The position numbers and the translations under genes are program-made. 64,000 nucleotides of DNA from Eledone cirrhosa (Eukaryota), in assembly GCA_964016885.1 (NCBI GenBank), contig OZ024742.1:62744001-62808000 (forward strand). Direction: 5' to 3'. Below the pieces are notes generated by a model. That model was not told the DNA's origin and did no database searches. It saw nothing but the letters and a program-made list of their open reading frames with translations. Positions 1 to 60,710 of this stretch are shown one piece after another. Positions within the stretch are counted from its first letter, which is position 1. Each line of letters begins with the position of its first letter.

Positions 1-1497
1 GAGCAATGATCAACCAGGAAAAGTCAGTGGGCCTGAAGCTCGGCACCTGGAGAGGTAGGTCCATGCCGTCCAACAGCGTCGTCGGGCGCTGGACGGACGG
101 ACCGGTTAAATTGCTAGGGGTCTGGTTCGGTCCGGACCTCCAGACGGACAAAAACTGGGACGAGGCGACGAACAGGGTGGCTTCTCTCACCCAGAAATGG
201 GCGGAGAGGAAGCTATCCCGGAAAGGTCGAGCGGAGGTGGCTAACGCGTACATCGCGTCCGTCATCTGCTACCGCCTGACCGTCGTACCTTGTCCTAAGC
301 CCCGCCTGACTGCGCTGGAGCGTTTGCTCTTTCGCTTTTTGTGAAAGGGACGCGCTCCGATGGTCAGGCGGTCCATCTGTTGTCAACACCCGCTACGTGG
401 AGGGCTGGGCATGCCGTGGCTGATGATGCGCAGACACGCGCTCAGGCTACGATATCTCCACCTCTTCCTCGACGGTGATCAGGTGTGGTCGCCGTTTGCT
501 AGACGCGTCTTTCCCCAGCTCGTTTCCTTGACGGAGCTGCAGTCCTGGGTCAAGCGAAGACCGAGAGGGAGCGCTTGGAGACTGGGATATCTTCAGGTGC
601 TCACAGCCCTCGACCAATCGGGCAATGTGGTCGGTGGAAACTCCACCTTGGCGTTCTATAGAGGATTAGTGGACTAGAAGAGCGACGACGTACTTGGAGA
701 AACTCTAAGCCTCGACGAAAATCAACTAGCCAATCTCTTCGGAAGAACTTTCGGGCCGGGGCCTATGGCTACCGAGGAGCCTTGCCAGTTCGGGATAAAC
801 TCTACAGGCATGGAGGTGCCGTCAGCCGGGCATGTCCGTGATGCGCGCAGGGCGACGAAACCGTCCTGCACGCACTCGTCCAGTGTCCGAGAATTGCTGA
901 CTTGTGGGTTTATGTCGAACACCTGCTGTCGAGTGTAGGACGGATCCGGCTATCAGCTGAGTCCATCGTGAAGATTTCCCCGCCCTCTTCCTTTAGCCGG
1001 GAAGGGCAGGCAGTTTTTATCTGTCTGGTGGCCATGGCGAAAGAGATAGTATGGTGGACACGTTTGAAAGGGCTGAAGACGAGCACTTACCTCTTCGGTG
1101 ATGCCTTGATTAACTTTTTCAAATTTCATTTGAAAAGGAAAATCAGGGTAGAGAGGGAAGTGCTCTCTTCCCAGCATTTTGTTGAAAGATGGGTGAGAGA
1201 AGCAAGAATGGCCCGAGTGAATGGGCCTACTCTGAGTATGTGTCTGTAAATTAAAGGTGGAAAACTGGGAGAGGGCACTTGCCCTGGTGGTCAGGGTCAC
1301 TGTGGCCTTTTAATGGGCTTTCTCCACAAATGTCCCTCCGAATTCTCCCCCCTATTGGGGAATTTTTCATTGTTATTTTTATTACATCCTCTGTTTTTGT
1401 TTTTTACACGCAGAAATGCCCATTTGTACCGTCCTGTATTGTCCTGTACTATCCTTAATGTCTACTTTATGTAAACCCTTGTGGTTAATAAAGAAAG
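1..1497 (+). mobile_element. Tx1/L1-type LINE copy 1: 3' part of ORF2 (post-RT region and zf-RVT) plus 3' UTR, degenerate
   Basis: Translations INQEKSVGLKLG..KLLGVWFG..GRAEVANAYIAS, HPLRGGLGMP and ETVLHALVQCP. Colinear with 5990-7920. Contains stops and a ~30 bp deletion near 770. Ends AATAAAGAAA followed by (TAT)n. Confidence 0.9.
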
Positions 1498-1509
1498 TAT
1501 TATTATTAA

Positions 1510-1700
1510 AATGGCAAGGGCATAGAGTTACGGCCCTTGCCATTCTGAGTTCAAATCCCGCCGAAGTTAACTTTGCCTTTCATCCTTACGGGGTCGATAA
1601 AATAAAGTACTAGTAATGCACTGGGATAATTGCTGGCCTTGTGCCAAAAGTAGAAACAATTATTATTATTATTATTTTTATTATTATTATTATTATTATT
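1510..1700 (+). mobile_element. Meta-type tRNA-derived SINE, 5'-truncated, with (ATT)n tail
   Basis: B-box GAGTTCAAATCCC; central GCCTTTCATCCTTACGGGGTCGATAAAATAAAGTAC; tail GGCCTTGTGCCAAAAGTAGAAACAATT. Many near-identical copies in this window. Confidence 0.85.
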
Positions 1701-1966
1701 ATCGGCCTGATCGGATGTCTTTTTGCTCGTTCCCGTAAGTCTCTTTATTTACCTGTCATAAATCATTTATTGTAATTTGTTGTTGTCGTATAAGGGACAT
1801 AAGCCCTTGGACTTTGCCCTGTGAAGGGGAAAGTATAATATTTGGGCCTTTTGGCCCAAATATTTGAAGTTTTTACTTTTAAAAATTATCAAATAAAGCA
1901 TGGTTGAGCCACCCCGTGATATGTCTGCTGTCGTGTGACAACGGCGTAAAAGTTGAGAGGAGGGTT

Positions 1967-3903
1967 ATGGCGAACACAGAAATTGATACAACAAACTCCA
2001 CCACAAACAACGTGACAGCAATTACACAACACTGAGAACACTATTGTTGAAAAAATGACCACACCAACCGCAACAGTAACAGCGACAACCAAAATACAGA
2101 CAACAGAAAAAATTACAACAAATGCAACCACGATATTAACACCAGTAACAAGAAAATAAATAGCGACAACAGTAACAGCAACAATACAAATTGCACCGAG
2201 AACAACAACTACAGTGGCACCAAAAACACAACGAACTGCAACAGTGATAACAGCAACAACACCAACAACACCATTTGTAGCAGTAGGAACAGCAGCAGCA
2301 CCAACAAGACCAGTAGCAGCAGTAGCGGTGGCAACAATGATGCCACTGAAAAAGGGACCATCTCTTTTGCAAAAGTGACTCGCAACATAGAAACGTCCTG
2401 GTTACACAGGAGGAGATGGCGGTCGCAAGACACGTGGTAACCAGAACTGAATTGTCAGTGTCCTTGAAACCACCAACCGACTTCCTGGAGGAACAAGAGC
2501 GACACAGTGTCATACCGCACAATTTCCACGAAATCGCGTCGTGTGGAGGGAGCCTCGGAGGCCCAAATCCAAAAGGCCTTTGGAACTATGTGGGCACGGA
2601 AAACCCGCATCACCCGAGGCAAGAAATATGCTACCGTGGACGTCCTTTTTTCTACCACCCAGGAAGCAAAATCGCACTCACTGACGACTCTACGAAGTGA
2701 TGACATAACATTAGTCCCATTTTACTGCAGGGAAAAAGATTGCAACGGTCAGGGTAACCCAGGTCCCTCCCTACGAACCCGTGCCTTAGCTGGTTGTGTC
2801 TGTTCTTGCGGGCATCAGGGATAGAACAACCATTCTGCAGGTACAGAAGTTGTGGGGAGAGGACTGGTCCGGTATTGGAATGGAGATGCTCATCCAAACT
2901 GACCAGGACTGCGTCAGCGCTATTCCTGACGTAATAGACCTCGGGAATGGCTCCCAACTTCCCATATCTGTGGAAGGAAGGCGCTCAAAGTGCTTCAACT
3001 GTGGATCGAAGTCTCACCTCAGGGTCTTCTGCCCACAGAAAATAGCAAAGGCGGAGGTCCCCTTCCTTCCAACTCCGGAACTGCTTCCATCAGAAATAGA
3101 GAAGTCAGCGAAAAAGTCGGGAGCTTCTACAAAGAGTAGGAAGACAACGTCTTTGGCACCCACGGACAACAAAAGCAGCGGTGGCAACTGCAGCAACAGA
3201 AACAGTTGCACTAGCTGCACTCGTGCCAAGAACGGCAGACCAGGCTCCACCTCCACCATCAACAACAACAGAGACAAATAAGAGGATAGAACTCATACCC
3301 CTCCCCGACCTCTCACAGTCGGACATGGAGTATGAGGCGGCAGAGGAGTGGAAAACGGTTGTCAACAACAAAAAAAGAACAAACGCAAAAACACCACAGT
3401 TTCGCTCTCCAAAAGCGAAGGCAAAGAAAAAGGGGTAAAGGCTGCAAGGAGACTTGCAGCAACACCACCACCATCACCACCACAAGCAACAACAACCACA
3501 CCACCACCAGCATCACCAAAACCACCAACATCGCAAACACAACAAAGCACACACACACACACAACAGCAACAATAAAACAGCACCCCCCCCCCCCCAAAA
3601 AAAAGGTACACAGCCATAAACATCGCACACAAAGGATCAATGGAACATATAAAACAGCACACAGATATTTCAGACATACATTACCACACCCCACCAACAC
3701 CAAGAACATTACCAAATAATATTAACATCGTCGAAATTAAACTCGAAGACTATAAACAATTAAAACAAAAATTCCCCAATTGCGTTGGGGATTTCAGGGG
3801 CTCACTCTCCAAAAGAATCTATACGGATAACATCTTGGAGACACCCATGAGCAGCCGAAGGGACAGTTCTACTGTCCCTTCCACACACGATCAAGGTAAG
3901 TGA
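1967..3903 (+). pseudogene. LINE ORF1 (gag-like, zinc knuckle), frameshifted
   Basis: ATG at 1967; Thr/Ala-rich low-complexity arms; CFNCGSKSHLRVFC (CX2CX4HX4C) at 2991-3032; basic C-terminal stretch. Confidence 0.75.
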
Positions 3904-3935
3904 TCCTTTCTCACTTACCCCATTCCTCACCCAGC

Positions 3936-6900
3936 ATGGCCGTACTCAGAATAGGCAGTGTAAATGTATGTGACCTGGGATCATCTTGCAAGCAGGCTCA
4001 CCTGCTCAACGACCTCAGGTCACTAAACATGGATGTGGTGACCATCAGCGAGACCAGAATCTCCGAATCACGAGCCTTCGCACCGATCTTCGGCGGCTAC
4101 GATGTCTACGCATCTCCCAGCCGTCCTGGGTCGGGGGGAGGAGTTATTGTGCTTTTTCGGAGAGGCTTGGATCTCACCATAGGGGTCATCTTCCTGGACC
4201 CAGAAGGTAAGTCGGTGGTGCTGGACGTGACCGGCAGCGAAGGCAATGCTTTCAGGCTTGTAGCCGTCTACGCCCCAACAGGGGCAGGACGGCCAGATTT
4301 CTTCAGACGTCTCGAGACCTTTCTTGGAACGTCCCGCTCTTTAGTGTTAGTGGGCGACTGCAACGGTATCGTAGATACACATTGGGATTATGTAGGGCTA
4401 GTAGACAGGGCAGGAGGGTGTGAAAGCCTCAATAACCTACTCAGATGTTTTGAACTGTCTGACAGGTATAGACTGGATTATCCGAATGTGCCAATGTGGA
4501 CATGGGAAAACGGCATTGGGTCATCCAGATCGTGTTTAGAAAGAGTATATTGTAGGGAAATAGATAAGGCTAGTGTAGGTTGTCCACAATTTAAAGTAGT
4601 CGACTACACGGACCACAAATTTGTGATCTGTGAAGTTGACTTAGATAGACTCCATAGGCAAGGGCCCGGTTACTGGAAGCTGAACGCGTCTTTCCCGGCG
4701 CGCAAAGTTTACAGAGACCGGATTAGCGAATTAGTTAAGCGTGCTTTGACGGGTGCGATCGTCAGGTGGTGGTTTACCCTGAAAAGGCTATTAGAGTAGA
4801 ATCGATAGGGTTTAGCAAAGGAGTAGTGATAGAGGAAAATAGAGTAGTGGGAGAGCTAGTTAGAAAGCTAGAAGAGGCGTTTAAGTCAGGCATCGCAACC
4901 GACGTGCTTGCGGCGAGATTGGCACTCGACCAATTCTTCAACGCAAAGCATGAAGGATGCGTTGTCAGAGCTAGAGGGCGTGCTCTGAGACACGAGGGGA
5001 TGAAAGCCGTTCAATGGGCCCGGGTGGTGGAGGTGCGACGTGACAACAAAGCCACAATTCGGTCTTTGCCTGATCAAAACGGGCGCATGTTGCTTGAACC
5101 CGAGCAGATGTGTGCGGCTTTTCAACAGCGATTTGCTCAATTGTTCGGGAGCGGCGGCAGGCCGGTTCGGAGTATGGACTTCGGTGCATACCTCGACGGA
5201 CTGCCGCGACTCTCGATGACCGCAGAGCAGTGCTGCGAAAAGCCGATGACAGCAGGTGAAATACGGGAAGCGATGTCTGACTGCACGAGGGGTAAATCGC
5301 CAGGTGTGGATGGTCTGCCCTACGAGCTTTATGCGTACATGCCAGACTTGTTCCGCGACCTCTTGGCAGAGGTCTACTGCAACTGGCAGCAGGACGGGAG
5401 CATTCCCAGTTTTGTGAACCGGGGAGCGGTGGCGCTGCTGAGAAAAGACCCGAACACGGGGGACGTTATTGACAACGTCAGGCCCATAACTGCTAAACAC
5501 AGAGTTCAAGATTTTGGCCAAGCTGTTAGCAAAGAGATTGGCGCTTGTCGGTGATCTGGTGGAAGCGGCGCAGACATGCACCATTCCGGGCAGATCCATC
5601 CACGACAACTTCCATCTCATGCGATACATCATAGAGAAGGTGGTTAAGGAACCTGGCACGAGTGGCGCCCTGATTATCTTGGATCAACCTAAAGCATTTG
5701 ATAGGGTCGACCATCTGCTCGATTGTGAGGGTGAATAGTCACCTGTCGCAGCCGTTTAGCATCATGCGCTCAGTCCGCCAGGATTGTTCCCCCTCGTCCC
5801 TTTTGTACGTGCTGGCCCTCGAGCCATTACTGCACAAATTGGAGACTATGAGGGGGGTCCTACGCCAGCTGGGATGCGGGAGATCCGTGTCAGCTTACGC
5901 CGACGACGTTACCGTGGTGGTGTCGAGCACCAAACACGTCCAGATTCTCGGCACCACTCTCAAGGAATACGAAGCGTTTACATGAGCAAAGATAAACCGG
6001 GAAAAGTCGGTGGGCTTGCAGCTCGGCACCTGGAGAGGCAAGTCCATGCCGTCCAACAGCGTCGTGGGGCGCTGGACGGAAGGACCGATTAAATTGCTCG
6101 GGGTCTGGCTCAGTCCGGACCTCCAGATGGAGAAAAGCTGGAGCGGGGTGACGAGCAGGGTGGCTTCTCTCACCCAGAAATGGGCCGAGAGGAGGCTGTC
6201 TCTGCAAGGTCGGGCGGAGGTGGCGAATGCGTACATCGCGTCCGTCATCTGCTACCGCTTGGCCGTCTTGCTTTGCTCCCGCCCAACTCTGACCAAAATG
6301 GAACGCCTTCTCTTCCGCTTTTTGTGAAAAGGACGTGCTCCCATGGTCAGACGATCCATCTGCTGTCAGCACCCGTTGCGTTGGAAGACTGGGCATGCCG
6401 TGGCTGATGATGCGCAAACATGCGCTGAGGCTACGACATCTCTGGTGCTTCCTTGACGGTGAACAGGTATGGTCGCCGTTTGCCAGACACGTTTTTCGCC
6501 AGCTCGTCTCCTTGACTGAACTGCAGTCCTAGATCAGGAAAAGACCGATGGATAGCGCTTGGTAGCTAGAATGTCTCCAAGCGCTCACCGCCCTATACCA
6601 GCTGGGCACTGATATCGATGGAACATCCACCTTTGCGTTCTATAGAGGGCTAGTGGAAGGGAAGAGTGACGACGTTCTCGAGGAGACCCTAGGCGTTGAA
6701 GACGATCAGCTGTTCGCTCTCTTCAAGAGAACTTTCAGCCCGGAGCCTATGGACAACTTCCAGAAATCCCTGGTCTGGCAGTGCTACCGGGGAGCGTTGG
6801 CGGTTCGGGATAAGCTCTACAGGCACGGAGGTGCTGTCAGCCGAGCCTGTCCGAGATGCACACAGGGCGACGAAACCGTCGTGAACGCACTCGTTCAGTG

Positions 6901-7652
6901 CCCGAGGATTGCTGACTTGTGGAGCTATGTCGAACAGTTGTTGTCGCGTGTAGCACGGATCCGGTTATCGACTGAGTCCATTGTGCAGATAGCACCACTA
7001 TCAGTGGAACAGCCACCTGGGCGTTCTATAGAGGACTAGTGGGTGGGGGGAAGAGCGACGACGTTCTCGGAGAGATCCTGGGCGTCGAAGAAAATCAGCT
7101 GTTTGCTCTCTTCCGGAGAATTTTCAGCCCAGGGTCTATGAATAATTTCCAGAAATCCCTGGCCTGGCAGTGCTACCAGGGAGCGTTGCTGGTTCGAGAT
7201 AAGCTCTACAGGCACGGAAGTGCCGTCAGCGGAGCCTGTCCGAGATGCGCGCAGAGCGACGAAATCGTCGTGCACGCACTCGTTCAGTGCCCGGGCATTG
7301 CTGACTTGTGGAGCTATGTCGAACAGTTGCTGTCGCGTGTATGACCGATCCGGTTATCGACTGAGTCCATTGTGCAGATAGCCCCGCCATCCCCCCTTTA
7401 AAGAGGAGGAAGGACAGGCAGTTTTCATCTGCCTGGTGGCCATGGCGAAAGAGATTGTGTGGTGGACAAGGTTGAAAGGGTTTTGACACTTTCCTCTCTG
7501 GCCAATCCCTGATTAACTTTTTCAAGTTTCACTTGAAGAGGAAAATTAGAGTGGAGAGACAAGTGCTGTCTTCTAGTAAGTTTGTTGAAAGGTGGGTGAA
7601 AGTGGCGAGTCTGGTCCGAGTGAACGGGCCCGCTCTGAGTATGTGCCTGTAG
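3936..7652 (+). pseudogene. LINE ORF2 (AP endonuclease, reverse transcriptase, zinc finger), with multiple frameshifts, stops and an RT deletion near 5715
   Basis: SVNV, ISETR, AVYAP, VGDCN, TDH, GPGYWKLN (APE); KSPGVDGLPYE, KAFDRVDH, VRQDCSPSSLLY, AYADD (RT); CPRC..ETVVNALVQCP (zf-RVT). Confidence 0.92.
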
Positions 7653-7924
7653 ACTGAAGAGTGGGAAAACTGAGAGAGGGCTCTTGCCCTGGTGGTCAGG
7701 GTGACCGTGGTCTTTTGTGTGGTTTTCGCCACGAGTGACCCTCGGAGGCTTCTACCTTTTTGGGAAATTTTTGTTGTTTGAATTTTTTTAATTTGATTTT
7801 ACACATTTCTGTCTTGTTATAACCTTTTTACACGGCCCAAACCCACTTTGTCTCGTCCTGTACAGTTCTGTGCCGTCTGAAATGTTTTTCTTCATGTTAG
7901 CCCGTGTGACCAATAAAGAAACCA

Positions 7925-8125
7925 GTGGATTGGCAGTATCGGTAGAGGGTCGGACGCCATGCTTTACAGCATAGTTACGTCCCTTTACGATCTGAGTTCA
8001 AATCCCGCCGAGGTTGACTTTGCCTTTCATCCTTACGGGGTCGATAAAATAAAGTACCAGTAATGCACTGGGTAATTGCTGGCCTTGTGCCTAAAGTAGA
8101 AACAATTATTATTATTATTATTATT
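7925..8125 (+). mobile_element. Full-length Meta-type SINE abutting the LINE 3' end
   Basis: A-box-like TGGCAGTATCGG, B-box GTTCAAATC, Meta-like core, (ATT)n tail. Confidence 0.88.
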
Positions 8126-8283
8126 TTTATTTTCTTTCATTATTGTTTCTGAGATATATGCCGAGTGTCCTCCTGACACCTAGGGCAAATAAATTCAAGT
8201 GTGCATTGGTAAGCCAGTTAATACAGCACATTGATCATAATTTAAACAAAAAAAAAATTATTATTATTATTATTATTATTATT

Positions 8284-8496
8284 GTTCTTTGAGTCTGTCA
8301 TTGGTGTTATTTAACTGGAAGGTTTGTTGAAATGAATATCAAGCCACTATCTGCAGCCTCAGACATTCAGGACGTATCGGAGGGTTCTTGCTGTTCCCAG
8401 CAAGCATGCCTTTTGAAGTGTTCCAAAAAGCGGGGCTGGACTAATCTTCTTTAACCATCCTTGGAAACTCTTTGAGATAGTACCTAGTGCGCCTAT
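8284..8496 (-). mobile_element. 5'-truncated Dong/R4-type (restriction-like endonuclease) non-LTR retrotransposon 3' end inside (TAA)n
   Basis: Minus-strand translation IGALGTISKSFQGWLKKISPAPLFGTLQKACLLGTARTLRYVLNV* (stop at 8359-8361) matches the typical R4/Dong C-terminus. (ATT)n flanks both sides. Confidence 0.75.
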
Positions 8497-8502
8497 TATT
8501 AC

Positions 8503-8538
<36 letters not shown>

Positions 8539-9059
8539 ACTATGCTTAGTACAACCCCAAAATACATACTAGAGACTACGTACCGAGTGCTCACTTTGGT
8601 GAACCTACAGTAGCTTGATCTTACAATCCCTAGATATGTGTATATATACAAAACCAAATTGTAAAATTATATTATAAAATTAAATTAAATTGTTTAGAAC
8701 TACAAATGAAATTATTCTTTTCCTTTTTTTAAATATACCTAACTGTACCAAGGATTTCACACATTTTCCAATATATGTATATATACACACATATATATGT
8801 TCGTGTGAATTTCAGGTTTTAAAAATTCATAATTTCCCACAAAAAAGATGTAATGGCCGTGTTGGTTGGATGATGGTGTTTGATTCTGGGAGTATTCAAT
8901 TGAAAGACCCTCTTAAATTGCCAGAAATCGCATACTCAAACAAAATGACAAGAACAGATTTCACACAAGGTATGTATTTATCCGTGTAACTTATTTTAAG
9001 CCAGTACAAAACTATTCTGTAATATATAACATGTCTTTGGAGGTTTCGTCACCCAATAA

Positions 9060-10230
9060 CTTAGGCTGCAGTAGCATTGTAACCTGCTACAAGGATAAAG
9101 TAGATGTACTGGTCAGAGGATTTAAGCTGATTAGGGACAGAATCAAGTTAGATAAGATGTAGCTTTGTTTTATACCAGAAAGGCGTATTACAGGTATACT
9201 CTTCCTTGTATGATCACTGCAGAAGTATGTACCCAGCATTCATTGAATTAGAAAAAGCATTTGATAGTTTTCTCCACAAGTCATGTTTTAAAGTGCAATC
9301 AACAAGGTGAAAGTCGGCAATTAGTATCGTGGTGAATTTGAAGTGTAGCTGGGTATCCATCAGAGTTTCGTCCTCAGTTTACTTCTGTTTATTGTTCTTC
9401 AAGCCATAATAGAGGAGTTAAAAACTGAATGTCCATGAAAGCTGCTGTAGTCAGATGATCTAGTGCATATGGCTGAGTAAGAAGTGAGACTCCAGACATG
9501 GAAGAAAAAGTTAGAATCAAATGGACTAAAAATAAACTTAGCAAAGCCTAAAGTCTTAGTAGGTAGGAAAAGAAACAAACCTCTAATAATGCCATGGAAA
9601 TAGCATTGTTTGATATATCTTGTAATGGTAAGGGCGCAAGAAACTGACTCCATCAATTGCTCTGAGTTCTCCCTAGAAATTACTGAAAAATGTTATTACG
9701 TAGGTGACCTAATCAGCAGTGTAGTAGCCAGAGTAAGAACGGGCTGGAAGAAGTGTAAGGAACTAGTACATCTATTGAAAACAAAGGGCTTCTCTCTCAG
9801 GTTGAAAGGTAAACTACATAATATCCGCATATGAACTGCAATGCCTTGACTATACAAGATCTGTGATGGCTGGAAAGAAATGAAGCGAGTATGCTCTGGT
9901 TGATGTTTGATGTTAGTGTGCATGAACAATGCAGCATGCGTGAACTGTGAGAAAAACTAGGCATAAGAGGAAACCGATGTAGTGTGAAAGAGAGAAGCCT
10001 GCAATGGTATGAGTATGTGATGCATATGGAGGATGGCAACTGTATAAAGAAATACGGAGGAAGAATTTTCTCTTAAAAAATCTTTAAGAGAAGGGATGAA
10101 GTAGTGAAGTCAGACTTTATGAAGCTGAATGGGTCTCATGGAAAAGGTAGACCATTTAAGAGAGAGAAGGAATGAAATAGTGAAGCTGAATCTCATGATA
10201 AAGTACCTCAAGGATTGGCAGCATGCCGTA
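9060..10230 (+). mobile_element. Old RTE-clade LINE remnant (RT and C-terminus)
   Basis: Degenerate EKAFD, GIHQSFVLSLLLFIVLQAI, DDLV, YYVGDLIS, ARVRTGWKK. Confidence 0.75.
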
Positions 10231-10916
10231 CTGGAGAAAATCAGGGCTATGAAGACTGAGACACTTATCCTCTCAAGGAAGCCAGCACAGTGCACTCTAC
10301 ATGTGAGTGGAGTTCCATTGAAGCAAATGGAGTAATTCAGGTATCTTGGAGTCGTGTTCATGAGGCAGGAGGCTGAATTAAGTACAAGAATTGCAGAAGC
10401 TGGAGCAGTAATGCTCCAGTTTCAGCATTTGGTCATCAGAAAAGAGAGGTAGATGTAATAACCAAACTTGCTATTTTCAATTCGGTATTCGTGCCAACCC
10501 TTATCTATGGACATAAATATTGGTAATGACCGAAAGAATACAATCACGATTGCAAATTGCCTAAATAGGTTTTTTTCTGAAGGGTATTTGTAGTAACGTT
10601 ATTCGATTGAGTACGTAGCTCAGAGATTAAAAAGTCGCTCCTGGTAGAGCCGCTACTTCTCGTAATTGAGTGATGACAACTCCTATATTACTGACATGTG
10701 GTTAGAATGTCCCAAGAAATCAACCATCAAGAGGTCCCGAGCAAGATATTGGGATGACATTCATGAGCTCGCTGGAGGATTCAGTCTGATCAACTGGAGA
10801 GGGCTGCTTCTGATAGGATCCTCTGGAAGGAGTACTTCAGGACTTTACCCTAACAATTTTCCTAGAACTAAGTGGAAAGAAGAAGAAGAAGAAGAAGAAG
10901 AATAAGAAGAAGAAGA
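10230..10916 (+). mobile_element. RTE-clade LINE 3' fragment with (GAA)n tail
   Basis: KTETLILSRKPAQCTLHVSGVPLKQ..FRYLG, FNSVFVPTLIYG. Same family as 29530-30260. Confidence 0.78.
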
Positions 10917-11787: not shown

Positions 11788-11978
11788 ATAATTGTTTCTA
11801 CATTTGGCACAAGGCCAGTAAATACTCAGTGCATTACTGGTACTTTGTTTTATCGACCTCGTAAGGATGAAAGGCAAAGTTAACCTCGGCGGGATTTGAA
11901 CTCAGAATGGAAAGGGCCGTAACTCTATGCGTCAAAGCATGGCGTCTGACCTTCTACCGATGCTGCCAATCCGCCGCC
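11788..11978 (-). mobile_element. Meta-type SINE with target-site duplication
   Basis: Reverse complement of the 7925 copy, flanked by ATTT(G/C)AAAAAAATAAT. Confidence 0.88.
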
Positions 11979-12125
11979 ATTTCAAAAAAATAATTGTTTC
12001 TACCTTTGGCACAAGGCCATTTGAAAAAAATAATAAACAACCTTCGGCCTCCAGAACGTATGGTAGATTTTTTAGACTTATTTTAGGAAAAAAGTAATTA
12101 ATAATTTATCTAATATCAACCTGAG

Positions 12126-13450: not shown

Positions 13451-13499
13451 TTCATACATACATGATGGCCGCAACTCGATTTCGTCTACTCCCTCCGAC

Positions 13500-13820
13500 A
13501 TGCGAGCAACTCTTTTGATATTTTCCCAGCTTGTTGACAGCGCATGGAAGCATGGAATGAGCGACATCCTTCGCATATTTATTTTCTCTACTTGTTTCTG
13601 CCTCCAGCCAGCATTTCCCAGTTGTGAAGGTCGAGATTGGATTGTGACAGCCTGTTCGTTAAATGTTTCTTAGGATTTTGTTGAGGCTTTTTTTCCTTCA
13701 GCCAGCTCTCTGAAAAGTATCTGCTTGGGGATACGGCTATCGTCAAGCTGTTTCAGATGTCCTGCCTAGCGAAGGCAGTGTTTGTGCATATGAGCTTCTA
13801 TGCTGAGTAAATTGTAAAAA
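13500..13820 (-). mobile_element. RTE/BovB-like LINE 3' fragment
   Basis: Minus-strand translation LR*AGHLKQLDDSRIPKQILFRELAEGK. Confidence 0.7.
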
Positions 13821-14321
13821 AAAACTTCAGCTTATACCCATAGACATAGACAGAAGGTTCCAAATAGGCTGTACCTGGTGCTGGCATGGCAATTGCTTTT
13901 ATCCAGACAGATTATCAGACGAAAGACAACCTGACCATGAGACATTGCATATCAGCGACAGTGCGAGACCAGGTCGCAGTCATCGGCGTAGAGGAGATCG
14001 CGGTAAAGAGTTTTTTAACTCTTTACCGCGATCTCCTCTACGCCGATGACTTAGTGGTTGTTACAGCTTCGATGGATCGAGTGATGTATTGTGTTCTTAA
14101 TGTATTATATATATATTGCTCATAGACAATTACTCGTGGTCTGCTCGAACGTTCATAGTTACGTTATATATATATTTATAAATATGTATGTGTGTGTATC
14201 CCGGGTTCAATCGGGGGTAACCACAGTAAGTAAGGTATTCAATACATAGTAGAGTATATACAATATTTAATATAGAAATGGCTTCTACAGGACTAGAAGC
14301 CATTTCTATATTAAGCATTAC

Positions 14322-14334
<13 letters not shown>

Positions 14335-14395
<61 letters not shown>
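14335..14395. repeat. (TG)n microsatellite
   Basis: About 30 perfect TG units. Confidence 0.97.
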
Positions 14396-14397
<2 letters not shown>

Positions 14398-14399
14398 AC

Positions 14400-17300
14400 T
14401 GGCAAGAAAGTAATTTCGATTTTTTAGTGTGAAAATAAATCTTTTTTTTTTTTCATACAAAGAATGAACTTTAATCAAATTATTATAGTTCATTCTTACA
14501 ACAACAAAAACTTTTTGGTCTGGTGCCTGGAATATTTCAACGAATTCTTAAGTGATTTTGCCTGCTAAATTAAAAAATAACTTCAGCTTTTCTCTATCAA
14601 GTCTAATTTTCTGACTAGACCTGATAGAGTAAGTAGTTTATTCATACAAGAGACATATAATATGAATCAATAAAGAGAGCATAACACAAAACAAAACAAA
14701 GTCTAAATAAAAATTCAAAATTGAAAATGCACATTGGCAAAGATTTTTGGCAGAAAATTCAAGGAATAAATTTATGCTTCTTTGTGCACTGTGAATGTTG
14801 AGCAACAGGAGTATCTCGTTTTAAACACCAGCAATAGTCTGCCATCATCACAGCGTCCCAACGTCCATCAAAAATCCCTGCTTTAAGTTTTTCAATCATA
14901 TAGTCTGGAAATACACTGCAGTTTACTTGAAGCACTCCCCCTTTTTGTCAAGAACTTTGACGAATTGCTTGATCAATCCGAGTTTGATGTGCAAAGCGGA
15001 GAAAATGATCTTATCTCGCTCAACTAAAGGTTCTTCCAATATATTGGCAGCTCTACATGGATCCATATTTGTTCGAGGCGGCCAGTCTTTCTTAACATAG
15101 TGGTTTACTCGGTCTCTATTGTCCCACATGCAAAGAAAGCATGGGTATATGGTATAACCAGATTGCTGTCCTATGAGAAAATTCACCATCTTTAAGTCAA
15201 CGCAGATGACCCATTTATGATCATGATACAGTATCTTCTAAAACCAACTTAATTTCTTCATATTTTTCCTTCAGAGTCCTTGAGTGGCCAAGTGGGACAG
15301 AGCCATACACATTTCCGTTGTGCAACAATGCACATTTTAAACTACGCTTAGAGCTGTCTATGAAAAGACGCTATTCCTCTGGTTTGTATTCCTCAATGCC
15401 AAGTTTATTAAGAAGCCCACTGACATCCCTGCCGTAAACCAGCTCTTCCTCTTTTGTGAAGAAAGAAAAGAACTCTTCACGCTGACTCCGATAAAAGGTT
15501 ATACAGACACCATTCTCTAGAAGATTCTTCTCTTTCAGTCGGGAAGCCAACAGTTCTGCAGAATTGTTTGGGAGGTTCAAGTCACGAACTAGATCATTCA
15601 GTCTTAATCTCTAGTGTCATCTTCAGGTGTTGAATTTTCTTTGTTTGAGGGTAAAGTTATCTGAGGCCAGACATTAAAGACAGGAACGGGAAGCTCTTCA
15701 CTGTGTGGAACCGGTCTAATAGCAGAGGCAAGATTAGGATAGACAAGCGTTTGTCGATTTTTTTCCGGTTAATACCGTTCAAATTTAGGTTACCAAAATA
15801 GCAGTCGTCCACGTGGTTATAGGGCTCCCGCCATACCATTGCTATAGGTAACCTCATACTTTTCCTTGTCCCTTTAGTCCATTGTCGAAAATGTTCTGTA
15901 CATTGTTTGCAGACACTATGCGGTGCCCAATATTTATCTTGGTCTCCCAGCTTGACCCCAAAATATGCCATATACGCTCTTTCAACAAAATCATTTCGAT
16001 TTTCAGGTAATGTGTATTCTCCACAAATATAACAAAACACATTTGGAGAATTAACGCAACACTTTCTTGAAGAGGACATCTTGGTCATTTTCTATTGCTT
16101 AATTCACTACAACAAATAAAAAGTATGGAAAAAGAAAAAAACTTAGAATTAAAATAAGGTAACGAACACTGCGTACTGGACGTACACACATACATAGTAA
16201 CTATAGGGATGTTCAATAACTTAAAAACTAGAGCTGATAGGTCAAAAAGGAGGTTATATCAGGATTCAGGAGACCGATTTTGTATAGGAATGATGTCTAT
16301 TTCCTAAACACCAAAAACTTTGTAGACCAGTGTTTACCATTTTGCTCAATGACCTTTTGCCATCTTTCTGGAAACTTCATGATTCAGCGCTCATAGAACT
16401 TCTGGTCCTTAGCCAAAAACTGAAGCAAGTACCATTTCAAGTCATCATCATTATTGAAAGTTTTTTTACCATTCAAAGAATTTGCAAACTTCTAAATAAA
16501 TGGTAATCTGATGGTCGTAGGTCAGAGCTATATTGTGGATGTGACATCACTTCCCAACCAAGCTCCAATAATTTTTCACGAGTTAGCAAAGACGTGTGTG
16601 GTCTAGTGCTGTCATGGTGGAACACGATTCCTTTACGATTTGCCAATTTTGGCCGTTTTTCTTTGATTGCTTCCTTTAGTTTCATTAGTTGTTGACAGTA
16701 AACATCTGAATTGATCGTCTGGTTCCTTGGAAGCAACTCAAAATACACAACACCTTTATAATCCCACCAAATTGACAGCATGACCTTTTTTTTATGCAAT
16801 TCAGCTTTCGATGTGGTTTGTGCTGGTTCATTACGCTTGGACTATGATCTTTTTCGATTGATGTTATTGTAGACAATCCATTTTTCATCACCAGTGATGA
16901 TTCATTTAAAAAAAAAAGGTTGATTTCATTGCGTTTGAGATGCATATCGCAACTATTGATTCGTTGTGTTAAGTGAATCTCTTTCTTAACGAGTACAAGA
17001 CATTTTAAGTGATTTCATTGTTGTGTGTGATACATTTAACCTCTCTGCAATCTCTCGCACAGTTATATGACAACCAGATTCAATTGTGGCTTTGATTCGG
17101 TCATCAACTTCAGTAGGTCGACCAGAAGGTTGATCATCTTTGAGTGAAAAATCTCCAGAACGAAATTTTTAAACCCATTTCTGACATGTGCATTCTGTTA
17201 AGCAATAAACACCATAAACTTCACATATCTCTTTGTGAACCTCAGCAGCTTTCTTGCCTTTACGGAAATAAAAAAGCAAAATATAGCAAAAATGTTCGTT

Positions 17301-17500
17301 AAAATTGACCCTGAACTAACAGCTGTAAACAAAATTATGCACAATTTGCTTCTAAAGTAAGCTAAAAGTAACGGCTATCAAACGTCAAAAGGAAAATATC
17401 ATAACATTGACAAAAGTCATTAAAAAAGAAAATCGTACCTCAATCTATTTGCGTAAAGCGAAATTATTTTCTTGCCAATTGGGTTGGCAAGAAAGTAATG
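14400..17500 (-). mobile_element. Mariner (DD34D) transposon, degenerate, interrupted by a nested element at ~14498-16332
   Basis: TIR TGGCAAGAAAGTAATTTCG at ~14400 and its inverse CGAAATTATTTTCTTGCCAA at ~17459-17478. Transposase at ~16335-17300 reads ILLFYFRKGKKAAEVHKEICEVYG, KKVMLSIWWD, VFHHD, SDLRPSDYHLFRSLQ. Confidence 0.9.
14498..16332 (-). mobile_element. Chapaev3-like (CMC superfamily) DNA transposon, internally deleted
   Basis: FCYICGE..LGDQDKYWAPHSVCKQC..WREPYNHVDDCYF; AELLASRLKEKNLL; LFIDSS; CVDLKMVNFLIGQQSGYTIYPCFLC; LHIKLGLIKQFVK; MADYCW. Terminus reads CACTG on the minus strand at 16332. The family name rests on recalled protein similarity. Confidence 0.72.
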
Positions 17501-17864
17501 TATATATACATGTATATTTGTATGTATATGTATATATATATATGTGTGTGTGTATATATATATTGTTATACTTTCTGTCCTACACCATCTTGTTTTGGGT
17601 GTAGGACAAAATAAAGAGGAGACACACAAAATAAAAACTTAGTCACTGAGGAGGTCACAGAATGTGTGACGAAATAGCTTTGACAATATATAAACAACCT
17701 TCCGGTTATCGAACCAGCCAACCAGCCGGAAACTTATAATGAATTGAAGTGAAAAACCAACAGGTGCCTGTGTTTTTATTGACAGCATGACCGTCCCAAA
17801 GTATAACAATATCTGTTTCAACACACATTTTCAGATAAGAAGTCTTGCAAAACAAATTCAAAAG

Positions 17865-17915
<51 letters not shown>

Positions 17916-17979
17916 ATATTTTAGGAGGGTCATGCTGCCTCCAATAAAAACACACGCATCCTACAGTATATAACAACGT

Positions 17980-18162
17980 TGGCCCTATGAATTGCGGTTA
18001 CAGCTTATTTTTGTTTAGTTGAGTTGACTGGAGCAACGTGAAATAATGTGTTGCCCAAGGAAATAATGTGTTGCTCAAGGAAATAATGCCTTGCCGAGAA
18101 TCGAACTCACGAGCTTACAATCGTGATTCAAATACCCTAACGAGTAAGCCGCACGTCTTCAC
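17980..18162 (-). mobile_element. CORE-type tRNA SINE with an internal 20-bp tandem duplication
   Basis: TTGCTCAAGG (CORE-like), GAATCGAACTC B-box, AAATAATGTGTTGC(C/T)CAAGG twice. Confidence 0.7.
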
Positions 18163-18349
18163 ACGAAAAAAAAATATTAGTCAATTATTGATATTTTTTT
18201 CTCAACACGTGATTATTTGTCATTAGTCTTTTTATTTTCTCTGCCTTAATTATGTCAACACTATTAGTCTGTCTAGTTATCTGTCTTGTAGCATAATTGT
18301 TTCTGCTTAGCATTTTGACACCCCTTTCACTAAATACATTAACATTAAT

Positions 18350-18530
18350 TTGGCAGTATCGGTAGAGGGTCGGACGCCATGCTTTCCAGCATAGTTACGT
18401 CCCTTTACGATCTGAGTTCAAATCCCGCCGAGGTTAACTTTGCCTTTCATCCTTACGGGGTCGATAAAATAAAATACCAGTAATGAACTGGGTAATTGCT
18501 GGCCTTGTGCCTAAAGTAGAAACAATTAAT
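18350..18530 (+). mobile_element. Meta-type SINE
   Basis: Near-identical to the 7925 copy. Confidence 0.88.
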
Positions 18531-18602
18531 TATTGAGGATGGAGTTTCTGAGTGGTTATCTCTAAGAATAATTGGAAGCATTCGAAGATAAACAATTTCT
18601 TA

Positions 18603-18830
18603 TGAACTCTTTTAATAACAATCCAGTCAAAACCGGTGCCGGTTCTATGAATCACATCACTCATTTTTAAGGGATCCTATCTGAATTAAAATCTTCTAGC
18701 ACAACTTTATAATAAGAACCTTTTGATAAGTTATGTTGCCATTCTTAATAATGAAATATTTTAATAATTTTAGCAAATCCCTCGAAATACTTCATTGTAT
18801 TTCATTAAGAATATAGCCACAAAGGGTTAA
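18603..18830. mobile_element. Short non-autonomous element with an AAAGGGTTAA end (piggyBac-like MITE); relatives at ~35270-35430 and ~52610-52680
   Basis: Shared internal GGTTCTATGAA..CCATT(T/C)TAA(A)GG and TTAA-CC(C)TT-type ends. Confidence 0.45.
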
Positions 18831-19297
18831 TTTTAAGTTACCTCCCTTGGATGATCACTATCATTATCAATATCATATTACATTAGATGGACGGTGAATT
18901 TGCAGGGTCGGTGTTTGTACTGGATGTTTGCATCAAACCTTATCACGGGCAACTTTGTCTTAAATCATTCCAAAATTAAAGTACCAGTTAAGTACAGGGA
19001 TCGATATAATCGACTTTGTCTACCACAAAATTGTTGGCCTTGTACCAAAAATAGAAATTGTATTATCTTACAAGGGAGATAACTTTGCAAGCACTATGTA
19101 ATTTTATGATTTATTTCCCTTTGGTTACGATGATACCAGAGCATAAACTTCAGATATTTTTTTCTTTTTTAGTTTTCGTTAGCCAACAGGATTAAGGCCA
19201 TGCTTTAGCAACATCTTCAGCTATCTATTTTAATTTGTTAAAACTGTCTTAGTTACTGACATGCCTTTATGTGTCTGTACAGGATGGGGTGTGAATG

Positions 19298-19520
19298 CGG
19301 GTAGCTTAGTGTTTACGGTGTTCGGCGCACGTGTGTAAGGTCGTTGTTTTGATTCCCGGCGGAATGTGACATCCTTGAGTTAAGCATTTTATTTCATGTC
19401 GCTCCAGTTCACACAATTGGAAAAATATTAGATATACCTATGATTCAAAAGTCCAGCTTTGTCACACATTGTGTCAAGCTGAATCTCCCTTAGAGTTATA
19501 TTAACTTTACACGTGTCTAA
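19298..19520 (+). mobile_element. CORE-type tRNA SINE
   Basis: AGCTTAGTG..TTGATTCCC..TCCTTGAG..TTTATTTCA..GCTCCAGT. Confidence 0.65.
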
Positions 19521-19655
19521 ATAATTGTTTTTATTTTTGGCACAAGGCCAGCAATTACCCCAGTGCATTACTGGTGCTTTATTTTATTGACCCTGTAAGG
19601 ATGAAAGGTAAAGTTAACCTCGGTGGGATTTGAACTCAGAACGTAAAGGGCCATA
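19520..19655 (-). mobile_element. Meta-type SINE, 5'-truncated
   Basis: Reverse complement of the tail, core and B-box. Confidence 0.8.
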
Positions 19656-20759
19656 ACTTTATTTTATTGTAGCACTTTATGAACAGTGGATTGGTAGAGT
19701 TGTGAGAGTTTCGAACAAATGCTTAACTATTCATTCCTGCTCATTATTTTCTGAGTTCAAATCCCATCGAATGCTTTTCATTCTTCCAGCTAAAGAAACA
19801 ATAATTTTATGTATTTTCATTTCCTATATAAATATCAGGTTTTGGCCAAAATGTTCTATCGGCCTCGTAGGAAGTCCTATCGACGCCTGGAAAGATTGGT
19901 ACTATCCACTTTGAGGGTTTTCGCTCTAGATTAGCAGTTTCCTGGGCAAATTTAACGGTCTGTTTGCTAAATCTATTTTATTTCCTAAAGTGTAAATTAC
20001 TATCTGGTGATGGGGGGGGGGGGGGGGCTACTTGCCAAACTCATCAGGAGCACTTTAAAGCTTTGTTTGTGCTTGATTAGATTGAGGCAACTCCAACTAA
20101 TGCATCTGTGACATTACGAACAGAGGTCACCTATGAACAACGATCATAACAATTGCCCAATAAATGCATCCACAACAGCGCAAACAGAGCCACCCCATGC
20201 ACGATTATTATAGACGTTTGATGCAAATATTGTCAACCAGTCATGATTTCAACGTGGGGCACCATATATGCGAGAACCAGATACTAGATCAAGATCTGAC
20301 TTGATCATGCCAATAAACAGTTTTCAGCTGTCTACCTCACCGTTCTATGCCAGCTGAGGAAGTGGCTGGTGTGATTCTAGCACGGCTGAATTCCCATCAA
20401 AGGCAGCAAAGTGCGTGGCCGAACAACGGAGGTGTCTTTGTGTAGGAATTGCTAGAGGGAAAACAGAACAGAAACAAGCAACTACGTGATAGGAATAAAT
20501 TTCCCTGCGGCTGAGAACTTTTATGTAATCAAATATATAATACATCAAAACTGTACATACTGACGTATGTCCTCTTTCCTTTAAATTGCTTCTATACATC
20601 ATTTGAATTACTGTGAGAGGTTGAAATAATTTACCCTACCCTCTGAAACGAAGAAAATAGACATATACTCTATTTACATCTGGAATGCTCTAAAAGGACT
20701 AAATGTTATGCCTCGTACATACTGAGGATCTCTCTTAGAAAACATTCATTCTCAGTACT

Positions 20760-21370
20760 TCCACCTTCAAAAATTAATGACCTCCAATAAGACTTAAGTG
20801 AGGTACACAATGGAGTACTGCTCGGACATCTGGAACGGTGCTGCTGTTGCTCATGCTGACATCCAAGACAGTATCCAGGAAAAAAAAAATAGCCATTTAG
20901 TTTATCGGTTTAAAGTCTCTCTCTGACACTTTCCAGCCTCTATCTTAAAGACATTCTGTTCCCTTCCTCAGCTTATTCTACCGCCATTGCAATGACTCAC
21001 TCGCCTCACCTCCTCTCATTACCCATGCTGTGTCCAGTACTAATCACTACATCCAGTCCATCCTGCCCAGAAGGGCATCCCTCAGGAACTCCCTCTACTC
21101 GTTTATCTCGGCTTCATCCTCCCATTACCCATGCTTTGTCCAGTATTAACAACTACACCCAGTCATCTCCCCACCAAATAAAAGAAACGTCTTTTCCCCG
21201 AGAACGTTCACTCTACTCTTTAATCTTTCATTCAGACGCCACACTAACTATTACACACAGTCTTTCTCTCACGGAATGTCAACCATCTTGAACCCTTTCC
21301 CTGCCGAACCCTAACCACAAAAGAGAAGACCTGCAACAATTTAAACGGGAAATCAACAACATCGATCTCA
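20760..21370 (+). mobile_element. Degenerate CR1-type LINE 3' end
   Basis: Remnants resembling MEYCSDIW, LSLFY, SFPRT and DLQQFKREINNIDL. Confidence 0.5.
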
Positions 21371-22399
21371 TTGGTTTCGGCCTGCGGCCAACATCTACTA
21401 GTTAATTTCTGTCAAGATAACTCTAAAGTAACAAATCACTGCATCGGCCCTAGAGTAAATGATGTTATGTCTGAGTGTGTGCGTATCTATGTGAGTGTAT
21501 GCGTTTGTGTGAACTGTATACAATCAACAAAAACTGCTTGCTTCACGTACGGGAGGTAACTCAGCTTGCCTTAACGTACAACTTATAGCTTCAGAATTTA
21601 ACGTGTTTATGTAATGAAATGATTGACATGATATTTCGTTGTTTTGAGTTCGACATTTGATAGTAGTAGTAGTAGTAGTAGTAGTGGTAGTAGTAGTTGC
21701 TGTTTTTGTTGCTCTTATTTAGTCCAAAATCAGGATGGCTCAAGCAGTCTTCGTCTCAAAACCGATCCAGCCATGACCATTCTTTCTTTTTTTTTTTCTC
21801 AGACTTTTATATCATTTTTATAAGTGCGGTGTGATGGATATTTACCTGCTATTTCTAGCAGGTCAAGCAACATCACCTATGAACATCACCTTAGATTCAG
21901 TCTGGAGTCTACGGAAAGTACTTCTCACCTTTGGTTGTACCACCCCAAAAATAAAACGGCAGTAAGGTCTAGGTGGTTAAATAATTAAATAAAAACATAT
22001 TCGGTGTCACACTAGGGTGGATTAAGCTTGCATAGGGCACCCTGCATATCATTGGAGCCTTGTATATTATTTATTATAACAAAATAATTAATTTGGGGTT
22101 TTTTAAATATTATGGGGAACTTTAAATATTGTGAGGCGCACCGGCTGAAAATGTCATCAAGGCTTTGCATAATATTTATGGTAGCAAAAACTTAAATTCG
22201 GGAACCTTAAAATATTGTGAGAGACATAAATATTGGGAGAGGGGGATCTTTAAAAATGGTGATCCCTACGTAGAGGTCAGTCAGACACTTACCCACTAAT
22301 CTGCCAATATACTGAATTGAAAAAATTCGTTCAGCAAAGATTTTTCGAGCACTTTGCACCATCATTAGTGTCTGTTGTACTTTGAAGGTGATGGTGGCA

Positions 22400-23860
22400 A
22401 AAATCTTTCCATCTCTGTCAATCTCTTTGCTTCGTGCTATGGAGCCATCATTTCTTTGTTAGCCCTTCTTACAAGTTTTGTGTTTGTGTGGTTGGTTGTT
22501 GTGGTAGTGTGTGTTTGCGTTTGCTTGGATGTGTTGCTGGCGGTAGAGGTGTTAGTGTTGGTGGTGTTTGAGTTGTGAATGCATCTGTGTTAGTTGTATG
22601 TGTTGAGTCTGCGTTTTCTATTGTGTATGATGTCAAATGCTTTTATCTTGTGTTTTCGTTTTTGTTCTTTTGGTTTGGGTTCCTCTCGTCTTCACTTCGA
22701 GATAAGGAGGTCCTGTTGTCTGTAGTAGTGGGAGTGTTTGTGTGGGTGTCTATGTGTGGGGGGGGTGTTTAGAGGAGACGGAGAGAGACAGTGGAAGAGG
22801 GCGAGCTTTTTGGGGGGACTCCTGAGTGATTTTTTTTTTTTAGTTTGTTGCTGCTGTTGGTGATGCTGTTGGTTTTTTTGGCGCTACAGTTGTTGATATT
22901 GTTCGCTGTTGTTGATGTTATTGCTGTGGCTGTCGAGTCCCTAGTGTTGGAAGCAAGGGGGTTATGTGGCTCCCCGTCTTCTGTTCAGAGCAGACAGATC
23001 TTAAGTAACCCGTTTCTCCGCAGAGTTGACAACGGAATTTTTTGCGACTCAATGACATTGCTTAGCATCACGCCATCTGGTAGGTGAATGAGGTGAGGAA
23101 TGTTCTTCATCTTTTTTGGTTCAATATGTAACAGAATTTCAAAATAAATCCCCGACAAGTGTTCCCTCCGGGCGCACATGACTTCCATGGGTGCGTTGCT
23201 ACACCCCCCCCCCCCCCCCAAACACACACATGCCAGGATCCACCAGATGTCCAATCCTAGCGAGATAGCTCTGATTCTGACCCTTAGGGTTCTTCTTCCT
23301 TGCTACGAAGAGTATAATACGTATTGGTCTGTCCAAACGGAGACCACAGAATACTTGACAGGCAGCGCTTCTGGTTTGAAGAACACTGAATGGCTGTGTA
23401 ATGTTTTGCTCGGGCAATATGCTCTATATCGGGCATAATGTCTTCCAGTGCTCTTTCGCACTTACTTTGAGCGATTTTATTGCAACAATTCTGTAAATAA
23501 AGGTTCTTTTTATTTTTGCTGCAGACATTTCGTGTAGGACGGCTATTTCCACTTTTGTATTTTGCCACTTGATTATGTAGGTGCCTTGTGTTGAGAGGTT
23601 GTTGTTTTTAATGTCCAGAACGAATAGTTCAGTGGTTTTCGTGGACGTTGCTGCGATGTGGTTTTGTGTTGTTTTTGCAATTCTAGTTGTCCTTGTTGTT
23701 GCCGTTGTTACTATGCTGTTGTTTTTGTTGCTTTGCTACCCGTCCGATGATTTGAATGGCCAGAGTTTCTTGCAACCCGGAGATTGTGGTTCTGTATATA
23801 GTTGGTGTTATCGTGACTAGTTAGTTCTCTGATCTTTTTGCTGTTGGTGGCCATTATTTT
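22400..23860 (-). mobile_element. ORF1 region of a Tx1-type LINE in inverted orientation, degenerate
   Basis: ATGGCCACCAAC at ~23854; IPHLIHLPDGV resembles IPDVIDLGNGS of copy 2; knuckle remnant CQLCGETGYLRSVC near 22990-23030; Thr/Gln-rich arms. Confidence 0.7.
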
Positions 23861-23899
23861 ATTAAGTCCTCTAGGTTTAGTGTTGTCGAAAATGAGAAC

Positions 23900-24280
23900 T
23901 TAACAGTGGAAAGGAAGATGAGAGTGGAGAGAGAAAGCTGCCCCTCAGTATATTTGTTCAAAGGTGGGTGAATGTTTCGAGAATGGCCCTGTGAATTGGC
24001 CTACGCTGACCTTGCGCGTATCGGCTGGCTCGTTTAGAGAAGAAAGAGACGTTCTTGGAAAGTAGAATGATTTAGGATTGGATGGCTTCCTGAGTCAGCC
24101 CTGGGTGGTACTTCCCCCTACTGGAGAATTTGTTATAATTTTATTGCTAATTATTATCTGTTATCTTCGTTTTACTCGATTTTTTATTTTTTTTGTTTTT
24201 TTGTAAACCTCCAGTCTTAGACTTTTATATTGACCCCTATATATCGGCCCTTGTGGCCTATAAAGAAATTATTATTTTTA
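23900..24280 (+). mobile_element. Tx1-type LINE copy 3: extreme 3' end only
   Basis: RKMRVERE..FVQRWVNVSRMA homologous to 1135-1250 and 7540-7650. Ends GGCCCTTGTGGCCTATAAAGAAATTATTATT. Confidence 0.8.
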
Positions 24281-24287
24281 TTTTCAT

Positions 24288-24450
24288 CGGTGGAGCTGCG
24301 GACACTATGCTTCGTGGCATTAAGTTACGGCCCTTTACATTCAGATTTCAAATCCCGCCGAGGGATCGATAAATAAAGCACCAGTAATGCACTGGGGTAA
24401 TTGCTGGCCTTGTACCAAGACTAGAAACAATCATTTTATTATTATTACAT
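24288..24450 (+). mobile_element. Meta-type SINE, internally deleted
   Basis: GTTACGGCCCTTTAC..TCAAATCCCGCCGAGG..GCTGGCCTTGTACC..TAGAAACAAT. Confidence 0.78.
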
Positions 24451-54612: not shown

Positions 54613-54614
54613 AG

Positions 54615-55820: not shown

Positions 55821-60710
<4,890 letters not shown>

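Follow-up and report, generated by a model that had tools for sequence, protein, structure and literature searches.

A Tx1-like LINE and a tRNA-type SINE with matching 3' ends and a common ATTAT target in Eledone cirrhosa

A 64,000-nt stretch of the Eledone cirrhosa genome (assembly GCA_964016885.1, contig OZ024742.1, positions 62,744,001 to 62,808,000 of the forward strand; hereafter the window) carries copies of a Tx1-like long interspersed nuclear element (LINE) and of a tRNA-type short interspersed nuclear element (SINE), neither of which has a poly(A) tail. The last 24 nt of the two elements match and contain a predicted hairpin, and both elements are inserted at common Y|ATTAT sites in a single orientation. 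On these sequence grounds, it is likely that the protein of the second open reading frame (ORF2) of the LINE copies both the LINE and, in trans, the SINE. An earlier note on this DNA had proposed a partnership of this kind, and its pairing, target and polarity hold, while its ATT tails, its Meta-SINE label and its (ATT)n as the SINE target are not supported.

The 3' end of the SINE resembles that of the LINE beyond chance, as had been proposed. When compared with LINE subfamily B over the terminal 24 nt, the long SINE variant agrees at 21 of 25 positions and the short one at 17 of 24, and the scores against the subfamily B tail were reached by none of 5380 masked sites preceding ATTAT and by none of 3000 shuffles. 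The LINE end forms a predicted hairpin with the loop CTTGT in 110 of 130 copies. Its third stem pair is A-T in 64 copies and G-C in 60, and is paired in 125 of 130, so that compensatory change is seen in the terminal stem-loop among LINE subfamilies; this swap reflects a single change between subfamilies, not repeated events. The SINE hairpin, GGC-CTTGT-GCC, has the same loop and a stem one pair shorter than that of the LINE. The terminal dinucleotide is CC, TC or GC in 30 of 39 older long SINEs and in 87 of 131 LINEs. One locus (L103; G000:C4:35192548) was considered as a LINE subfamily with the exact SINE end and was rejected, since the pattern occurs once in the genome; it is likely a one-off junction, in which a LINE end was replaced by a SINE end at the common CCTTGTG.

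In 800 kb taken irrespective of repeats, there were 72 SINE copies with a 3' end and both flanks. The SINE copies stop at GTAGAAACA, with A as the terminal base in 71 of 72, and the following ATTAT (exact in 58 of 72, with at most one mismatch in 71, against a background of 0.25% per position) is the start of the target duplication and lies outside the SINE, contrary to the ATT tails described before. Target duplications opening at ATTAT were found for 45 of the 72 copies (9-25 bp), and 39 of the duplications include at least 4 nt of non-repeat sequence, compared with 3.8 (maximum 8) in 200 shuffles. The upstream duplication copy opens with ATTAT in 36 of these 39, and the base before it is C in 24, T in 12 and A in 3 (C makes up 16% of the genome); the preferred SINE site is Y|ATTAT. 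The possibility that ATT is a copied tail was rejected, because ATTAT stands at the start of the duplication copy before the SINE as often as at the start of the one behind it (36 and 34 of 39). Among 150 SINE ends found by the tail motif, ATTAT within one mismatch stands behind 146 and ATCT behind none, and 130 have fewer than three ATT units, so that an (ATT)n array is not supported as the SINE target.

The LINE junctions show the same sequence: of 143 candidate ends, 131 have ATTAT there with at most one mismatch (116 exactly), and 27 of 28 scored LINE 5' ends (2 of 30 loci were left unscored) lie behind ATT. LINE target duplications of 12-19 bp with unique sequence were found at L001, L013, L278 and L093, with LINE copy 1 of the window included, and L278 sits at a lone C|ATTAT site. 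Thus the target and polarity are common to both elements, as claimed earlier, with ATTAT junctions on the same strand; the array length differs. The median number of ATT units at the junction is 4 for the LINE, in arrays, and 2 for the SINE, at lone sites. The LINE ends came from best-match searches; in the fixed-step sample, 5 of 7 ATT-type ends also lie in arrays. One reading of this array preference is that a LINE RNA with a longer AUU read-through behind AATAAA would need a longer match. At two loci (L040 and L225), tandem copies consist of nothing but the terminal 35-55 nt of the LINE and the repeat, as if priming had restarted repeatedly.

The window shows how these copies are arranged. 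The three LINE 3' ends cited in the earlier note are present as given (1473-1498, 7899-7923 and 24246-24270), as is the SINE end, and a SINE on the same strand starts close behind each of them, at 1520 (about 21 nt), 7925 (1 nt) and 24286 (15 nt). LINE copy 2 starts at 1704, behind SINE 1 and an ATT array. The copies and their neighbours are as follows.

1..1498, plus strand: LINE copy 1, 5'-truncated, beginning about 275 bp before the window; C-terminus of ORF2 and 3' untranslated region (UTR), end AACC-CTTGT-GGTT AATAAAGAAAGT
1474..1486, plus strand: 3' hairpin of LINE copy 1, AACC/CTTGT/GGTT
1499..1516, plus strand: downstream copy of the 18-bp target duplication of LINE copy 1 (ATTATTATTAAAATGGCA); the upstream copy is at 9709-9726 of locus L201
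1520..1658, plus strand: SINE 1, short variant, 5'-truncated, 92% identity to SINE 2
1659..1701, plus strand: (ATT)n array (target) separating SINE 1 from LINE copy 2
1704..7923, plus strand: LINE copy 2, full length, decayed; ORF1 start codon at 1900, zinc knuckle near 2990
1841..1860, plus strand: 5' UTR hairpin TTTGGGCC-TTTT-GGCCCAAA of LINE copy 2, about 40 nt before the ORF1 start codon
7925..8104, plus strand: SINE 2, near full length, end GGC-CTTGT-GCC TAAAGTAGAAACA
8105..8130, plus strand: ATT array behind SINE 2
8287..8500, minus strand: 3' fragment of a LINE that we take to be Dong/R4-like from its C-terminal and AAT-end features, in the same ATT arrays, used from the other strand
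11794..11972, minus strand: SINE copy, with ATTAT next on its own strand
18350..18524, plus strand: SINE copy with no LINE beside it
19527..19658, minus strand: SINE copy, 5'-truncated, then ATTAT
22560..23880, minus strand: 5' part, with ORF1, of an element from the same LINE group, in inverted orientation relative to LINE copy 3 (tblastn E value 1e-22 to ORF1 of L219)
23895..24270, plus strand: LINE copy 3, an old 375-nt 3' fragment, end GGCC-CTTGT-GGCC TATAAAGAAATT, then ATTAT
24286..24429, plus strand: SINE 3, old, with an internal deletion, 70-71% identity

In LINE copy 2, ORF2 starts at 3936 and contains apurinic endonuclease (APE), reverse transcriptase (RT) and zf-RVT domains. This copy is damaged by a deletion of about 76 bp near 5715 and by an internal duplication (6613-7002/6999-7391), its 3' hairpin is mutated, and no ATT stands behind its end, where SINE 2 abuts. 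The minus-strand ORF1 part at 22560-23880 abuts LINE copy 3, which points either to inversion of a 5' end, with a large gap, or to two copies that lie back to back.

The adjacency of all three LINE ends to a SINE is true inside the window and overstates the rate among the searched copies, where a SINE follows within 60 nt of 34 of 129 ATT-type LINE ends (26%; 2 of the SINEs reversed), compared with 0 of 49 ATCT-type LINE ends and 6 of 400 random points. The adjacency is therefore real and polar, but follows mostly from the common site. The ages overlap, as had been suggested, with SINEs at 1.7-15% from their majority sequence (n=119) and LINE pieces at 76-99% identity to the nearest fetched copy. 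The view that chains of LINEs and SINEs are built at a duplicated target is supported by the ATTAT-opened duplications and the head-to-tail polarity. One SINE lies inside a LINE (L203) with a 16-bp duplication that opens with ATTAA.

In the proposed mechanism, the endonuclease would nick ATAAT|R in the bottom strand, at a pyrimidine-purine step like that of the L1 endonuclease. ORF2 protein would bind the hairpin and the GAAA-NN end, and the nicked ATAAT end would then prime, probably by pairing with a read-through AUUAU on the RNA. Each insertion doubles ATTAT, so later LINEs and SINEs can stack head to tail. LINE ends, mostly C, would restore the preferred C|ATTAT, whereas the short SINE, ending in A, would not.

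Several observations weigh against this reading. For the short SINE, the match to the subfamily A tail rises little above the control (4 of 5380). The ATCT-type LINE tail matches the SINE (26-28) about as well as two ATT-type tails do (21-27.5), and the partner therefore cannot be identified by its tail alone. No covariation is seen within the SINE stem itself, and the folding energies are weak (-4.5 to -7 kcal/mol). As a set, the LINE duplications are no better than the shuffle (35 of 78 versus 32; with non-repeat sequence, 11 versus 5.9, maximum 11), because most copies are in arrays, which are uninformative. The placement also differs, with at least three ATT units at 94 of 129 LINE ends and at 20 of 150 SINE ends. 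Plain ATT arrays are trailed by a SINE as well (26 of 187, 3 reversed), which indicates that most LINE-SINE adjacency comes from the common target and not from a special link. Finally, the driver of the SINE may be a rare LINE missing from the 1.2-Mb sample.

A second hairpin bears on how the RNA is recognised. Hairpins of the form TTGGG...CCCAA, mostly 36-53 nt before the ORF1 start, are kept in three ATT subfamilies whose 5' UTRs are otherwise diverged, with CTTGT, TTTGT or TTTT as the loop and a G-U/A-U swap in one copy. One form is identical to the SINE end over 11 of 11 nt, and no other stretch of that element matches the SINE tail as well, the element's own 3' end included (33 versus 20.5). 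Loops of this kind on a 4-pair stem are found 3-5 times per element, in part within ORF2, and the sole candidate 5' end of the ATCT type (L169, whose true 5' end is unconfirmed) is without the 5' UTR hairpin. The 5' UTR hairpin may bind the ORF1 or ORF2 protein, or control the translation of ORF1. We tentatively consider an extended scheme, which we regard as possible and by no means probable, in which the LINE RNA would carry one protein-binding hairpin twice, about 40 nt ahead of the ORF1 start and at the extreme 3' end, the SINE would be a tail-less minimal mimic of it, and the hairpin would be retained as the endonuclease changes its target from ATT to ATCT repeats. The mimic is suggested by the 11 of 11 nt that the SINE has in common with the 5' UTR form of one subfamily, and by a GAAA-NN end that would come from the 3' form. 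If true, this would be an animal L1-group element with stringent RNA recognition at two ends, and a natural series separating the choice of RNA from the choice of DNA site.

The same hairpin supports the rival that survives best, which we consider unlikely: the LINE mobilises the SINE with relaxed recognition, where an AUUAU read-through and the target suffice and the hairpin serves RNA stability, ORF1 binding or 3' processing. No priming happens in the 5' UTR, where a similar hairpin is found, and the loop and stem are common to ATCT-type lineages. In addition, SINEU is tied to Tx1-Mar by its target without likeness of the tails (PMC4494074; here and below, statements on published work refer to the parts of each paper that were covered). 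However, the SINE keeps both the distance between hairpin and junction and the terminal GAAA-NN, which fits selection for recognition.

It is much less probable that a different LINE (RTE, CR1, Dong or an unseen family) mobilises the SINE, that the SINE reaches ATTAT through pairing of its own read-through RNA at the site and that its likeness to the Tx1-like end is a relic or chance. Lone ATTAT sites are used far more by the SINE than by the LINE, which would suit such a driver, and RTE, Dong-R4 and CR1 have been reported as recently active in Octopus vulgaris (PMC13282606). However, the sampled RTE (GAA and TGA), CR1-like and Dong ends are unlike the SINE end, and Dong lies on the other strand; the RTE (GAA), CR1-like and Dong ends score 3-8.5 compared with 21-35, so that no better rival was found among the sampled LINEs. 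By inspection, none of the 177 tail-motif matches in 1.2 Mb is an RTE, CR1-like or Dong end, and the C/T preference falls outside the part of the site that is able to pair. The TGA-ended RTE-like LINE matches a different SINE, and ATTAT stands behind only 1 of 71 TGA-ended copies.

That second SINE, presumably of the CORE type, is found at 25347-25680 of the window (plus strand) and at L184, L252, L149 and L244. It terminates in TGA repeats and can be aligned over its final 50 nt with the end of the RTE-like LINE; the two make up a second, conventional SINE/LINE pair. Dong-like 3' ends stand tail to tail with the Tx1-like LINE in ATT arrays, at 8287-8500 of the window (minus strand) and at L122, L164 and L172.

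Passive chains, in which elements accumulate in AT-rich microsatellites or by segmental duplication, would suit the attraction of Dong to ATT arrays and the clustering of some 5' end matches on C1 at 217.3-217.7 Mb, but are very improbable given the strict polarity (34 versus 2; 26 versus 3), the fixed junction base, the unique flanks and the ATTAT-opened duplications.

The LINE that we hold to copy the SINE encodes an ORF2 with Exo_endo_phos (APE), RVT_1 and C-terminal zf-RVT domains, whose best relative of solved structure is the L1 ORF2p. ORF1 with a CCHC zinc knuckle is a feature of the Tx1 clade, and the knuckle (CX2CX4HX4C) was found upstream of ORF2 at 11 of 17 loci scanned. ORF2 scores 273-294 bits to three proteins with the automatic names YTX2 or TX1, with a fourth, partial match at 118, compared with 142-143 bits to human L1 ORF2p, and the nearest named relative is from Argonauta hians (72%). 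In a tree without an L1 reference, the copies of this genome form a clade of 16 rows (support 100/100) with P0001 and the Argonauta protein, among homologues of the L1 group. A preference for target sequence is seen as ATTAT or ATCT at the junctions of the four subfamily sets that were searched and of the second ATCT set. A 3' poly(A) tail is typical of the L1 group, though not strictly defining, and poly(A) is absent behind AATAAA in the LINE ends printed. From these sequence features the LINE likely belongs to the Tx1 clade, and we call it Tx1-like. An Atlas look-up returned no clade name, and an endonuclease search among longer proteins gave no result. The closest relatives of ORF2 outside cephalopods (P0004-P0110, 40-51%) are ENA metagenome proteins without a name, some of them members of clusters with hundreds of entries, and are nearer to the LINE than the vertebrate proteins named Tx1.

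The LINE group makes up 47 kb of the 1.2 Mb sampled at fixed steps, and the ATT-type LINE has about 17,000 3' ends in the 3.0-Gb genome (extrapolated from 7 ends in 1.2 Mb). Sister lineages ending in ATCT mostly have the loop CCTGT or CTGGT and group with one ATT subfamily in the tree (98/84), which indicates that ATCT likely arose from ATT. Two young sister families (L291-L320 and L322-L340; 95-97% among the top matches) end in ATCT repeats, and a few LINE copies (L086, L096 and L210) have AAT ends. An AACT lineage (L183) was rejected, since the relatives of this copy end mostly in ATCT. Head-to-tail arrays of LINE, ATT and LINE with units of about 5.9 kb occur at L202, L204, L206, L209, L212 and L220, and in such arrays near-identical ORF2 copies are combined with differing 5' UTR/ORF1 modules (Y and Z), which suggests module swaps. 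Five similar LINE 5' ends are clustered on C1 (217.3-217.7 Mb), possibly by segmental duplication.

The SINE has about 500,000 copies genome-wide (extrapolated from 202 matches in 1.2 Mb). By direct inspection, SINE 2 has an A-box-like word, TGGCAGTATCGG (7931-7942), and a B-box-like word, GAGTTCAAATCC (7995-8006), while ARAGORN called no tRNA and Rfam gave no significant match for the SINE. Derivation of the SINE body or of the 5' UTR hairpin from U2 or U5 was rejected, with Rfam E values of 3.6 and 0.3 at chance level; the signal was not seen in two further SINE copies, although U2 stem-loop I reads GGCCUUUUGGCU in the printed consensus. The Meta-SINE label is unsupported. In the covered part of PMC4824008, BivaMeta-SINE1 and BivaMD-SINE1 show no likeness by eye to the SINE after the B box; three short words of theirs are absent from the SINE at 2 mismatches, and words of the SINE body are absent from the supplement. 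This comparison covers the bivalve sequences; a cuttlefish member is in Figure 2 of PMC4824008. The 66-bp Meta domain that directly follows the tRNA head in MetaSINEs is not seen in the SINE, which is best left as an unclassified tRNA-type SINE. Octopus SINEs are described as mainly tRNA-Core and tRNA-Deu (PMC8967140), and 893 of 900 recently active SINE families of O. vulgaris are unclassified (PMC13282606).

Among known systems, SINEU and Tx1-Mar of crocodilians (Kojima 2015, PMC4494074) are alike in that a SINE is tied to a Tx1 element by target, orientation and overlapping ages. They differ in their Mariner transposon target, in U1/U2-derived heads and, in the passages covered, in having no LINE that matches the 3' half of SINEU-1, whereas the cephalopod pair has a tRNA-like head, a 6-nt target motif and matching 3' ends. 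Kibi with (TC)n, Koshi with (TTC)n and the crocodilian (TTCC)n/(TTTC)n Tx1 families (PMC4494074, PMC3812793) also insert into microsatellites in one direction, but no partner SINE is named for them in these passages, and the targets here are ATT, ATCT and in a few cases AAT. The stringent L1-clade pairs of plants and algae (maize and sorghum SINEs with a monocot L1 lineage; SINEX-3_CR with L1-1_CR; PMC3747384) have a common 3' stem-loop end with a variable stem and a conserved loop, as here; our pair is animal, without poly(A) and site-specific. Dong elements that target (TAA)n (PMC3812793) use the same microsatellite and are present in these arrays, but differ from the Tx1-like LINE in the opposite strand, an unrelated 3' end and an AAT run behind. 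MetaSINEs (Nishihara 2016, PMC4824008) are alike in the tRNA-type head, a mollusc host and a partner LINE that is unknown in print, and differ in that the bivalve sequences are unlike the SINE body after the B box.

The link between Tx1 and SINE by target, the microsatellite-seeking Tx1 and the hairpin tails of the plant and algal L1 group are already known separately. We found no published description of their combination in an animal, a tail-based pair of a Tx1-like LINE and a SINE without poly(A), with Repbase and Dfam entries, Kojima and Fujiwara 2004, Ohshima and Okada 1994 and figure alignments outside the scope of this search; these sources may already contain parts of it. A named driver accounts for a large class of repeats and for its stacking, and would add an animal case, without poly(A), of the L1-group tail recognition known from plants and algae. 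Since the sister lineages combine this hairpin with a different target, the basis of site choice can be tested on them.

Elsewhere in the window, a 395-aa open frame at 33341-34528 (minus strand) contains a Homeobox_KN (TALE-type) domain (E value 2e-15), and very long AT/TATG-type simple repeat fields extend over 53187-64000 around a CR1-like RT fragment at 54615-55748.

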